Source: a virus
Lineage: Duplodnaviria > Heunggongvirae > Uroviricota > Caudoviricetes
DNA length: 7,400 bases
IMG/VR virus record: IMGVR_UViG_2513237361_000004
Direction: 5' to 3' (one strand)
Both the position numbers and the translations under genes were made by a program. Numbering within the stretch: position 1 is the stretch's first letter; every line of letters begins with the position of its first letter. Below the pieces are notes generated by a model. The model saw nothing but the letters and a program-made list of their open reading frames with translations, had not been told where the DNA came from and did no database searches. This document shows positions 984 through 4,459 of the stretch, piece after piece.

Positions 984-1464
984 TGTTCAGCAGCCCGCCG
1001 AGATGCGCTTTAACCGCGCCCGTGTCCGGCGGGCGTTTGTCACGATTGGGCAGCGTCATATGCGTGATGCCCGTCGGCTGGTGATGCGCCGTGCGCGGTC
1101 GGCACCGGGTGAAAACCCCGGTTATCAGACCGGACGCCTGGCTCGTTCGATTGGTTATATGGTGCCGAGAGCCAGTAAAAAGCGAGCCGGTTTTATGACA
1201 CGCATTGCCCCTAACCAGCGCAACGGGAAGGGGAACCGGATGATCTCTGGTGACTTCTATCCGGCGTTTCTGTTTTTTGGTGTCCGGGGAGGAGCAAAAC
1301 GTCGTCGTAGTCATCATCGTGGTGCATCCGGTGGCAGCGGCTGGCGACTGGCTCCACGTAATAATTTCATGGTGGAAACTCTTGAAAAGAACCGCAGCTG
1401 GACACGCTATTTTCTGGCGCGGGAATTGCGTAAATCACTGAAGCCGGAGCGACGACACAGATGA
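958..1464 (+). CDS. HK97 gp10-like tail-component / virion morphogenesis protein
   Basis: Strong RBS GGAGG at 948-952, 5 nt before ATG 958. The 168-aa basic protein contains a TGRLARSI motif and a downstream YPAFLFFG segment that recall the HK97 gp10 family. It overlaps the previous gene by 26 nt in another frame. Confidence 0.65.
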   Translation: MATPFFHVDVQQPAEMRFNRARVRRAFVTIGQRHMRDARRLVMRRARSAPGENPGYQTGRLARSIGYMVPRASKKRAGFMTRIAPNQRNGKGNRMISGDFYPAFLFFGVRGGAKRRRSHHRGASGGSGWRLAPRNNFMVETLEKNRSWTRYFLARELRKSLKPERRHR

Positions 1465-2021
1465 AACTGACGCCTGTTATTGCTGCGCTGCGTGCCCGCT
1501 GCCCGTATTTTGAAAACCGGGTGGCAGGCGCGGCACAGTTCAAAAATCTGCCGGAGGTCGGAAAGCTGAGACTCCCGGCGGCGTATGTGGTACCGGGTGA
1601 TGACTCTCCGGGAGAAAACAAAAGCCAGACCGACTACTGGCAGGAGCTGAAAGAGGGCTTCTCCGTGGTTGTCATACTGAGTAACGGGCGTGATGAGCGC
1701 GGTCAGTTTGCCTCGTATGATGTGGTGGACGATGTCCGGCAGATGCTCTTTAAGGCCCTGCTGGGCTGGAACCCGGAAGCGTGCGGTAACCCGATTACCT
1801 ATGACGGCGGCACGCTGCTGGATCTGAATCGTCATGAGCTGATTTATCAGTTCGATTTTTCGGTCATCAGCGAGCTGACTGAAGACGATACCCGCCAGCA
1901 GGATGATCTGAACAGTCTGGATGAACTTCAAACGCTGGCGATTGATGTTGATTATCTCGAGCCCGGTAACGGGCCTGACGGCGATATCGAACATCACACC
2001 GAAATAACCCTTCCTTCCTGA
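1461..2021 (+). CDS. Mu gp37-like tail completion / putative tail terminator protein (function inferred from position)
   Basis: ATGA overlap with the upstream gene (1461-1464). 186-aa acidic protein, co-directional, placed immediately before the pre-sheath small ORF and the sheath gene, which is the usual position of the tail terminator/completion protein in Mu-like tail modules. Family assignment is tentative. Confidence 0.6.
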   Translation: MKLTPVIAALRARCPYFENRVAGAAQFKNLPEVGKLRLPAAYVVPGDDSPGENKSQTDYWQELKEGFSVVVILSNGRDERGQFASYDVVDDVRQMLFKALLGWNPEACGNPITYDGGTLLDLNRHELIYQFDFSVISELTEDDTRQQDDLNSLDELQTLAIDVDYLEPGNGPDGDIEHHTEITLPS

Positions 2022-2029
2022 GGATCCTC

Positions 2030-2200
2030 ATGTTTGTCAAACCTGTTAAAGGGCGGTCAGTGCCTGACCCTGCCCGCGGCGACCTTTTGCCCGCCGAAGG
2101 GCGAAATGTTGACGAGAACAACTACTGGCTGCGCCGTGAAGCCGCGGGTGATATCCGGCGCGTGAATAAAAAGGTGAACACCGATGACGATAAGCTTTAA
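2030..2200 (+). CDS. small conserved pre-sheath protein (56 aa; DUF2635-like small phage protein encoded upstream of Mu-type tail sheath genes)
   Basis: Not in the supplied ORF track (below its length cutoff). RBS GAGGA at 2020-2024, 5 nt before ATG 2030. Hand translation: MFVKPVKGRSVPDPARGDLLPAEGRNVDENNYWLRREAAGDIRRVNKKVNTDDDKL, stop TAA at 2198-2200, overlapping the sheath start by 17 nt. The pattern MFVKP...LLPAEG....YWLRR matches my recollection of a small protein family found beside Mu-like sheath genes. Confidence 0.6.
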   Translation: MFVKPVKGRSVPDPARGDLLPAEGRNVDENNYWLRREAAGDIRRVNKKVNTDDDKL

Positions 2201-3679
2201 CACCATTCCGTCGAATACGCTGGTTCCGCTGTTTTATGCGGAAATGGATAACTCGGCGGCGAATACTGCACAGGACAGCGGAGCATCGCTGCTGATTGGT
2301 CATGCCAATAACGGTGCAGAGATTGTTGCCAACAGTCTGGTACTGATGTCGTCGGCAGACTATGCACGCCAGATTTGTGGTGCGGGAAGTCAGCTGGCGC
2401 GTATGGTCGAGGCTTATCGCCAGACTGACCCGTTTGGCGAGCTGTATGTGATTGCCGTTCCGGAAGCCACAGGCGCGGCGGCAACGGTTACGCTGACGGT
2501 GACCGGGGCGGCAACCGAAACCGGCACGGTGAATGTTTATGTGGGACGTACCCGCGTGCAGGCACCGGTGACCAACGGCGATAACGTCACGACGATTGCC
2601 GGCAGTATCAAAGATGCCATTAATGCCGTTCCGACTCTGCCGTTTACAGCTTCATCTTCGGCTGGTGTTGTCACGCTGACCGCGCGTCATAAGGGGTTTG
2701 CGGGAATGAAATTCCTGTCAGCCTCAATTACTACGGCTTTGGTGGGGGCGAAGTGCTGCCAGCGGGTGTACAGATTGCCGTGGCGACGGGGACCGCCGGA
2801 ACGGGCGCTCCGGTTCTCACCGGTGCGGTGGCTGCAATGGCGGATGAGCCGTTTGATTATATCGGTCTGCCGTTCAACGACACGGCCTCCGTTAACACGC
2901 TGGTGACCGAGATGAACGATACCAGCGGTCGCTGGAGCTATGCGCGTCAGCTGTATGGTCATGTGTATACGGCAAAGATCGGCACGCTGTCAGAACTGGT
3001 GACCGCAGGTGACCAGTTTAACCAGCAGCACATCACCCTGGCGGGGTACGAAAAAGAGACCCAGACGCCTGCCGACGAGCTGGCGGCAAGCCGTACCGCC
3101 CGCGCAGCGGTGTTTATCCGCAACGATCCGGCACGTCCCACGCAGACCGGTGAGCTGGTGGGTATGCTGCCTGCGCCGAAGGGGAAACGGTTCACGATGA
3201 CCGAGCAGCAGACCCTGCTGTCTCATGGCGTGGCAACGGCGTATGTCGAAAGCGGGGTGCTGCGCATTCAGCGTGATGTCACCACGTACAGGAAAAACGC
3301 TTACGGGGTTGCGGATAACAGTTACCTCGACAGTGAGACGCTGCATACCAGCGCGTATGTACTGCGCAAACTGAAATCCGTCATTACCAGTAAGTACGGG
3401 CGTCACAAGCTTGCCAGTGACGGTACCCGCTTTGGTCCCGGTCAGGCGATTGTCACCCCGGCGGTGATCAAAGGGGAACTGCTGGCAACCTACCGTCAGC
3501 TTGAGCGTGCGGGGATCGTGGAAAACTACGAACTGTTTAAGCAGTACCTGGTTGTGGAGCGTGATGCCAGCGATCCGAACCGCCTGAACACGCTGTTCCC
3601 GCCTGACTATGTTAACCAGCTGCGTGTCTTTGCCGTGGTTAATCAGTTCCGTCTTCAGTATTCAGAGGAGTCTGCATAA
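2184..3679 (+). pseudogene. Mu-type phage tail sheath gene, interrupted by a single-nucleotide frame disruption near 2693-2707 (fragments 2184..2906 and 2753..3679)
   Basis: RBS AAGGTG at 2171-2176, then ATG 2184. Two overlapping ORFs in different frames together span 1496 nt, which is about 498 aa once one base is restored, a typical sheath size. The frame-2 reading opens right after a TAA at 2690-2692 and reads GVCGNEIPVSLNYYGFGGGEVLPAGVQIAVATG, which looks sheath-like. The frame-0 reading after about 2706 turns into R/W/C-rich text (KCCQRVYRLPWRRGPP...) typical of an out-of-frame translation. Homopolymer runs GGGG (2693-2696), TTT (2697-2699) and GGG (2702-2704) sit at the junction. Confidence 0.8.
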
Positions 3680-4035
3680 TGGCCCGTATCGGGGGAACCT
3701 GTTATTTCAAAATTGACGGTCAGCAGCTATCGCTGACCGGCGGCATTGAGGTGCCCATGAACAAAACGGTTAACGATGACATCATCGGCCTGGACGGTTC
3801 AGTGGACCGCAAGGAAACTCACCGTGCGCCTTATGTCAAAGGGACCTTCAAGGTGCCGAAGAATTTTCCGGTAAGCAAAATCACCTCGTCTGATGAGATG
3901 ACCATCACTGCCGAGCTGGCGAACGGTCAGGTCTATGTACTGTCGTCTGCCTGGCTGCACGGCGAAGCGAACCATAATGCCGAAGAAGGCACGGTTGATC
4001 TTGAGTTCCACGGTGAAGAAGGGGATTACCAGTAA
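3679..4035 (+). CDS. phage tail tube protein (Mu gpM-like)
   Basis: RBS GAGGAG at 3665-3670, 8 nt before ATG 3679. TAATG overlap with the sheath stop. The 118-aa product lies immediately downstream of the sheath, with the size and position of Mu-type tail tube proteins. Confidence 0.8.
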   Translation: MARIGGTCYFKIDGQQLSLTGGIEVPMNKTVNDDIIGLDGSVDRKETHRAPYVKGTFKVPKNFPVSKITSSDEMTITAELANGQVYVLSSAWLHGEANHNAEEGTVDLEFHGEEGDYQ

Positions 4036-4304
4036 TGAAAGAGCTTGAGTTAAAGAAACCGATTACTGCTCATGGCGAGACACTCTCCGTACTGGAGTTT
4101 GATGAACCCACCGGGAAGGATGTCCGCGAGCTGGGGTATCCCTACCAGATGAATCAGGATGAGTCAGTCAGACTTCTGGCGCATGTGGTGTCGAAATACA
4201 TTGTGCGGCTGGCGAAAGTGCCGCAAAGCTCTGTCGACCAGATGTCTCCGGCAGACCTGAATGCAGCGGCGTGGCTTGTGGCTGGTTTTTTCCTCCAGGC
4301 CTGA
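4035..4304 (+). CDS. phage tail assembly chaperone (lambda G-like / Mu gp41-like), short form
   Basis: TAATG overlap with the tube gene stop. The 89-aa acidic protein lies between the tube and tape measure genes, the conserved chaperone position. A slippery heptamer sits just before its stop codon. Confidence 0.75.
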   Translation: MKELELKKPITAHGETLSVLEFDEPTGKDVRELGYPYQMNQDESVRLLAHVVSKYIVRLAKVPQSSVDQMSPADLNAAAWLVAGFFLQA

Positions 4305-4459
4305 CGGCTGAATACCTCACTGATCGCTTCTTTGACTGCGCCAGCTACTGGCGCATTAATCCTTTCGAATTGCTGAATATGCCGATCAGTGAAATTCCCT
4401 TGCTGGTCAGTCAGGCAAACAGGATAGAGCAGGAGAAACGCACACATGGCGGAATTTGA
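4035..4459 (+). CDS. tail assembly chaperone, -1 frameshift-extended form (GT-like); join(4035..4292,4292..4459), about 141 aa
   Basis: Slippery heptamer T_TTT_TTC at 4286-4292 in the zero frame. A -1 slip enters the frame of the 4271..4459 ORF, reading ...GFF then PPGLTAEYLTDRFF..., and ends 14 nt inside the tape measure gene. This is the conserved architecture of dsDNA phage tail chaperone frameshifts. Confidence 0.6.
4286..4292 (+). promoter_or_regulatory. programmed -1 ribosomal frameshift slippery site (T_TTT_TTC)
   Basis: Heptamer fits the X_XXY_YYZ rule with zero-frame codons TTT TTC, located 10 nt before the chaperone stop. The -1 frame stays open for 55 further codons. No convincing downstream pseudoknot or hairpin seen by eye. 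Confidence 0.6.

Follow-up and report, generated by a model that had tools for sequence, protein, structure and literature searches.

A DUF2635/Mu gp38-family gene between the tail terminator and sheath genes of an SfV/SfII-type prophage, with a possible role in tail morphogenesis

A 7,400-nucleotide (nt) stretch of DNA from the Caudoviricetes virus record IMGVR_UViG_2513237361_000004 of IMG/VR (i.e. the window) carries part of a contractile-tail operon, in which a 56-codon open reading frame (ORF) at positions 2030-2200 lies between a tail terminator gene and a Mu-type tail sheath gene. An earlier examination of the letters alone (i.e. the sequence-only reading) had drawn attention to this small ORF as a probable gene with a suggested role in sheath assembly or initiation. 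The features of the locus are as follows, with protein lengths in amino acids (aa).

1461..2021, + strand: tail terminator gene, 186 aa (Pfam Phage_tail_terminator PF23840, E 2e-26)
2020..2024, + strand: Shine-Dalgarno (SD) sequence GAGGA of the small ORF (read from the sequence; 5-nt spacer TCCTC to ATG 2030)
2030..2200, + strand: small ORF, DUF2635 / Mu gp38-family gene, 56 aa (Pfam PF10948, PHROG 208, SfV identity)
2030..2164, + strand: conserved core of the small ORF, residues 1-45 (AlphaFold2, alignment, dN/dS, i.e. the ratio of non-synonymous to synonymous substitution rates)
2165..2200, + strand: variable C-terminal tail of the small ORF, residues 46-56 (pLDDT, i.e. the predicted local distance difference test, and dN/dS)
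2171..2177, + strand: the sheath gene's own SD sequence AAGGTGA (read from the sequence; 6 nt before ATG 2184, within the 3' end of the small ORF)
2184..3679, + strand: Mu-type tail sheath gene, interrupted (Pfam Phage_sheath_1 and Phage_sheath_1C on the second ORF)

The small ORF starts at ATG 2030-2032, the earliest ATG, GTG or TTG downstream of the in-frame stop at 1976, and ends with a stop codon at 2198-2200, giving the translation MFVKPVKGRSVPDPARGDLLPAEGRNVDENNYWLRREAAGDIRRVNKKVNTDDDKL. The TGA of the terminator gene (2019-2021), whose product is labelled 'phage tail terminator protein' in E. coli RefSeq, overlaps the GAGGA motif and leaves an intergenic gap of 8 nt. The sheath ATG at 2184 produces a 17-nt overlap with the small ORF, and the interval 2022-2183 measures 162 nt. 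The GAGGA motif and its 5-nt spacer, the ATG and stop of the 56-codon frame, the 17-nt overlap and the 162-nt gap had been read in the same way from the letters and agree with the sequence and the ORF list. The frame had also been called unlisted, which is most likely explained by a length threshold (default 60 aa); in the public records of SfV, SfII and E. coli it is already annotated. As the window contains 55 ORFs of at least 40 aa, a length of 56 codons is unremarkable by itself and the case for the gene was built on comparative evidence.

Comparison with protein families showed that 2030-2200 is a gene of the DUF2635 / phage Mu gp38 family within an SfV/SfII-type prophage tail operon. The protein matched the Pfam DUF2635 model (PF10948) with 60.9 bits (cut-off 26.6; E 9.8e-17) over profile positions 1-45 of 46, and matched PHROG 208 with an E-value of 3.6e-26. 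Its amino-acid sequence was 100% identical to orf10 of phage SfV (AAL89419), which is described in the SfV record as 'similar to phage Mu GP38', and to the copies in SfII, SfI and SfIV. Alignment with Mu gp38 itself gave 42% identity over 52 residues without gaps (pairwise E 6e-15), and a tblastn search against a phage collection detected this relationship with an E-value of 9e-7. The likeness to small proteins beside Mu-type sheath genes, which the sequence-only reading had noted, was thereby borne out. Position was assessed as that of a stand-alone protein of ~50-90 aa between a tail terminator and a Mu-type sheath gene; domain score, similarity to gp38, and stand-alone size and position all placed the small ORF in the DUF2635 / Mu gp38 / PHROG 208 family. 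The DNA of the window was 97-98% identical to phages SfII, SfV and SfI, and sequence similar to the window was found in 1,103 of 5,426 complete E. coli genomes. A coding sequence named 'DUF2635 domain-containing protein' was present in the RefSeq annotation of SfII and of the E. coli record inspected. Neither the gene nor its family is new, both being known and publicly annotated already, and the annotation of the window is little changed by recognition of the gene.

The conclusion that the small ORF codes for a real protein under purifying selection was supported at the codon level. Among 70 homologues with DNA from viral contigs, the 45-residue core exhibited a median pairwise dN/dS of ~0.24, and variability was 0.42 at third codon positions as compared to 0.18 at the other two. 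The small ORF of the window differs from the SfII and E. coli copies at five bases, four of which are third codon positions. An alignment of 26 enterobacterial and Aeromonas members contained 16 invariant columns (i.e. M1, P5, V11, D13, P14, R16, G17, L20, P21, G24, R25, V27, Y32, W33, R35 and R36). AlphaFold2 predicted a compact domain for residues 1-45, consisting of short beta strands, a helix at residues 31-39 and a last strand at residues 42-45, with block-mean pLDDT scores of 93-96 over residues 1-40; residues 50-56 scored <50 and were predicted to be disordered. The C-terminal tail had a dN/dS of ~1.2, indicating no purifying selection in its own frame. Residues 46-56 are encoded by bases that also hold the sheath SD sequence and the first sheath codons, and these last 11 residues are a by-product of the overlap with the sheath translation-initiation region. 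Across the family, tails are 9-67 aa long and rich in lysine, alanine and glutamate, with proline also noted.

When 1.84 billion cluster representatives (50% identity) were searched with the family profile, 2,056 family proteins were recovered at E-values up to 0.001, nearly all of which were stand-alone proteins of 50-100 aa. Gene order was examined by scanning viral contigs with a degenerate DNA pattern, which yielded 120 loci encoding 74 distinct proteins; as this sample is biased to the DPxRGDxLPxxGR subgroup, divergent phages were checked one by one. The loci of 72 of the 74 distinct proteins contained a Mu-type sheath gene on the same strand, and in all but one of these (71/72) the sheath gene started close to the stop of the small gene (from 17 nt before it to 6 nt after it), such that the search for homologues and synteny proposed by the sequence-only reading found homologues at the same position. 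The terminator gene ended 3-11 nt upstream of the small gene in 61 of 70 loci. The order of terminator, small ORF and sheath was likewise observed in Mu, Vibrio martha, Acetobacter phiAP1, Bordetella PBb002, SuMu, Mannheimia 3927AP2, Klebsiella Kp4866-3, Ralstonia YO375_1, Rhizobium PPF1, Agrobacterium 7-7-1 and a Paraburkholderia prophage. Two of these phages encode members directly upstream of the sheath gene that matched PHROG 208 yet were missed by the Pfam DUF2635 model (i.e. 7-7-1 gp125, L138:6233-6439, E 6e-7; and Rhizobium PPF1_12, L133:1252-1455, E ~1e-7), indicating that the family is wider than Pfam reports. Together, homology, codon-level selection on the core and near-invariant synteny place the small ORF above chance and support the sequence-only reading in treating it as a real gene.

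The tight packing of these genes raises the question of whether the frame matters mainly for translational coupling to the sheath gene or as its leader, or whether the interval 2022-2183 acts as a regulatory RNA, with the peptide itself being unimportant. Such an explanation would account for the overlap of the small gene with the sheath start, which was observed in 64 of the 72 loci (by 17, 11, 4 or 1 nt), and for the presence of the sheath SD sequence inside the 3' end of the ORF. It is, however, extremely improbable given the 16 invariant peptide columns, a homology that can be traced to phages of Vibrio, Rhizobium and Agrobacterium and to Mu, the low dN/dS of the core and the confidently predicted fold. 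The sheath start was, moreover, preceded by its own SD-like motif in 46 of 49 related loci, indicating that sheath translation is independent of coupling. An Rfam search of 2022-2183 gave no match at E-values up to 1, a promoter and terminator scan detected no promoter-like or terminator-like site in this interval, and substitutions followed the pattern of the coding frame. A cis-regulatory leader RNA, the alternative that the sequence-only reading had set against its own gene call, was rejected on the basis of these scans and of the codon-level conservation.

Evidence linking the gene to the tail was obtained from a headless tail cluster of Pseudomonas fluorescens Q8r1-96. This cluster lacks the integrase and head genes and contains the terminator (PF23840), DUF2635 and sheath genes in order, with overlapping stops and starts; retention in such a cluster indicates that the DUF2635 gene belongs to the tail and not to the head. 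In the related P. syringae R-syringacin, only tail and regulatory genes have been kept from an SfV-like ancestor. Two mosaic pairs of loci (L088/L037 and L067/L121) exhibited a jump in nucleotide identity at the boundary between the terminator and DUF2635 genes, two events which hint that the DUF2635 gene may travel with the sheath gene. Correlation of evolutionary distances ('mirror tree') gave r = 0.76 for DUF2635 versus the terminator and r = 0.85 for DUF2635 versus the sheath, a result that links the three genes without discriminating between the partners. An accessory gene parked in the tail operon and having a non-tail role, such as host interaction or nucleic-acid binding via the lysine-rich tail, would be compatible with the composition of the family tails and with the absence of the gene from some Mu-type tail modules (described below). 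This is nevertheless an improbable account of a gene that holds a fixed position between terminator and sheath across phages of Gamma-, Beta- and Alphaproteobacteria, unlike position-variable morons, and that was kept in a DNA-free tail cluster. The part of the sequence-only reading that proposed a contribution to tail assembly fits the retention of the gene in the headless cluster, and initiation of the sheath is the less likely half of that proposal.

Whether the protein persists in the finished tail was assessed from published structural and proteomic work. The 2025 cryo-electron microscopy (cryo-EM) study of Mu, at 3.3-3.8 Å, modelled the portal, the adaptor gp36, the terminator gp37, the sheath, the tube, the C-terminus of the tape measure and the baseplate. 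A gp37 hexamer alone caps the tube and sheath, with its C-terminal hairpin completing the last sheath ring. The authors reported that gp35, gp38 and gp41 could not be resolved and suggested that gp41 is a tail assembly chaperone. The virion proteome of Agrobacterium phage 7-7-1 (24 proteins) lacks gp125, the homologue of the small ORF product, whilst the neighbouring gp124, gp126 and gp127 are present, and includes proteins of 3.2 and 4.3 kDa. Between them, the Mu maps and the 7-7-1 proteome effectively rule out a one-to-one decoration of the sheath by the DUF2635 protein.

We infer, with confidence that is evenly divided, that the DUF2635 protein is an accessory in tail morphogenesis, needed transiently when the sheath polymerises or is terminated, and that the finished tail does not contain it as an ordered, stoichiometric component. 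At this step, sheath subunits would polymerise on the tube and the terminator would cap them. The protein might keep the sheath subunits or the terminator competent for assembly, or might block premature or ectopic assembly, and would then leave no ordered, stoichiometric trace in the finished tail. A more specific version, offered tentatively, is that of a dedicated contractile-tail assembly factor that is never part of the virion and restrains the sheath subunits, or else the terminator, for as long as the tube is incomplete.

The main competing explanation is that the protein is a minor structural component of the neck or of the proximal end of the tail (i.e. a 'sheath terminator', collar or adaptor) that is present in low copy or is flexible. 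In this arrangement, the 45-residue domain would dock on the terminator or the last sheath ring, the lysine-rich tail would project outward and, in rare relatives, a fibre-like extension would replace this tail. A gap of only 3-11 nt to the gene for the low-copy terminator would suit a protein of 6-12 copies, and the authors of the Mu structure count gp38 among the 'probably structural proteins'. On balance we consider such a role unlikely, since the maps of the Mu neck, terminator and tail did not show gp38 and have the last sheath ring completed by the gp37 hairpin alone, and since the 7-7-1 virion proteome does not include the homologue although proteins of 3-4 kDa were detected. Searches of the PDB, both with the single protein and with the family profile, also found no chain matching the family. 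The GenBank record of Mu (AF083977; L003:3492-3695) labels gp38 as a 'putative sheath terminator protein' without citing evidence, a name that speaks for the structural role; as gp37 alone caps the sheath and tube in Mu, the label looks unsupported. An assignment of the small ORF as the sheath or tail terminator proper was rejected: the cap in Mu is formed by gp37 according to the literature, and comparisons of sequence and fold with terminators (PF23840, lambda gpU-like, T4 gp3 or gp15) found no similarity.

Several observations, in addition to the Mu label, weigh against a transient accessory and must be set beside the evidence for it. Both virion negatives are weak for a protein of ~6 copies, and a 45-residue domain that is flexible or symmetry-mismatched could average out in cryo-EM; in the 7-7-1 proteome gp124, which occupies the position of the terminator, was itself detected by one peptide only. 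Long members of 122-737 aa with an N-terminal DUF2635 domain made up six of the 150 best representatives. One of these, from a metagenomic contig (L010:3036-4244; P0165; 402 aa), has an N-terminal DUF2635 domain followed by an fn3 domain, and another, also metagenomic (L009:1580-3793; P0191; 737 aa), contains a stretch, SEDDGETF, that we interpret as an Asp-box of the sialidase (BNR) type. In phages, Ig/fn3-like domains typically occur in proteins exposed on the virion. The genes of these long variants, in which DUF2635 is followed by fn3 or another large domain, lie amid adaptor, head-closure, Neck1 and fibre-like genes and do not adjoin the sheath gene, an architecture that looks like a virion-anchoring module and not a chaperone, and that counts in favour of the structural explanation. 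They are, however, rare and located away from sheath genes, and may not report on the function of the short form. 

Further points of the same kind were found in the genomic data. A clear SD motif was present upstream of the small gene in only 23 of 50 distinct contexts, such that its expression may follow that of the low-copy terminator, which argues against the production of chaperone in amounts matching the sheath. In Ralstonia YO008_1-type loci (L131:1016-1504) the PF23840 terminator abuts the sheath gene without a small ORF, and in Burkholderia vB_PR2c (L134:1083-1349) the slot is filled by an unrelated ORF of 88 aa. Mu-type sheath modules without DUF2635 therefore exist, indicating that the gene is dispensable in some backgrounds. 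Literature searches on DUF2635, PF10948, Mup38/gp38 and tailocin loci found no functional study, in agreement with the statement in the sequence-only reading that the function of the family was not known to it; in particular, no mutant, interaction or localisation experiment was found for any family member.

The significance of these findings rests on the breadth of the family, which is very widespread (~2,056 representatives at 50% identity) and sits inside a much-studied phage tail operon. DUF2635 genes also occur within Pseudomonas tail clusters that are used or have been proposed as tailocins. If the protein is an assembly factor, it would be relevant to the recombinant production and engineering of Mu/SfV-type tailocins and would fill a gap in the tail assembly pathway of Mu. 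If it is in addition never part of the virion, it would represent a class of 'sheath chaperone' with no described counterpart in phage tails, tailocins or contractile injection systems, and one that is common to ~2,000 sequence clusters of Mu-type tails. The long variants suggest that the DUF2635 domain can also serve as an anchoring module.

Other features of the window were observed in the course of the analysis. The sheath gene, which the sequence-only reading had treated as a single ORF, is interrupted. Owing to the loss of 1 nt after 2696 it falls into ORFs 2184-2906 and 2753-3679, whilst relatives contain one 1497-nt gene; the window reads CATAAGGGG-TTTGCGG where SfII and E. coli BEC1 read CATAAGGGGCTTTGCGG. 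In all eight of the best E. coli matches listed, the 401-base query aligned to 402 bases of the record, indicating that these matches carry the extra sheath base. Either a private pseudogene mutation (i.e. a defective prophage) or a sequencing error accounts for the missing base. A tail assembly chaperone gene lies downstream of the sheath gene.

4035-4304: tail assembly chaperone gene, Phage_TAC_7, with a slippery heptamer T TTT TTC at 4286-4292 just before the stop

A -1 shift at 4286-4292 would enter the 4271-4459 frame, which ends inside the start of the tape-measure gene (4446), and 4035-4459 is, judged by its sequence, a classical G/GT-type programmed frameshift. Neither the SfII nor the E. 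coli record annotates this 142-nt stretch. Identification of the small ORF as a G/GT-type tail assembly chaperone was rejected, since it lies upstream of the sheath gene and has no frameshift signal; that role belongs to 4035-4304. At the other end of the window, positions 50-250 hold a 66-aa gene (PHROG 1020) directly after the major capsid gene, the product of which has a lysine-rich low-complexity tail like that of the DUF2635 protein.

The closest known counterparts of the small ORF are SfV orf10 and the copies in SfII, SfI, SfIV and E. coli prophages, which encode the same protein and have the same neighbours, the same 8-nt gap to the terminator gene and the same 17-nt overlap with the sheath gene. 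No difference was found in the small gene itself; the adjoining sheath gene is intact in the SfV-type records but frameshifted in the window. Mu gp38 (Mup38) shares the domain and the slot between the terminator gp37 and the sheath gpL, with its gene overlapping both neighbours, but is a protein of 67 aa with a longer tail and without the DPxRGDxLP motif of the SfV subgroup. Agrobacterium 7-7-1 gp125 resembles the small ORF product in its PHROG 208 membership, in being the top BFVD fold match and in its position directly upstream of the sheath gp126. It differs in being too divergent for the Pfam model, and is the only member found for which virion mass spectrometry covers the locus, where it was undetected. 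Matches to the N-terminal domain of B. subtilis YqbF (PDB 2HJQ) and to YqbF-like phage proteins that carry a Rho-N/LEM-like domain were non-significant, and no sequence relationship was detected, including by a weak-hit Pfam scan of 26 members, which linked the family neither to YqbF nor to other families. In B. subtilis, yqbF lies in the head-gene region of the skin element.

For function, the likeness to known systems is one of analogy. The polymerisation-blocking chaperones FliS (for flagellin) and PscE/PscG (for the type III secretion needle) may be compared with the proposed activity of the DUF2635 protein by analogy only, with no homology implied. The analogy that we favour is with the chaperones lambda G/GT, P2 E/E' and Mu gp41. 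Although the G/GT-type chaperones differ in belonging to the Phage_TAC_7 family, in being encoded between the tube and tape-measure genes and in using a programmed frameshift, they are, as the DUF2635 protein may prove to be, small helpers of tail assembly that are encoded in the tail operon and are not part of the virion.
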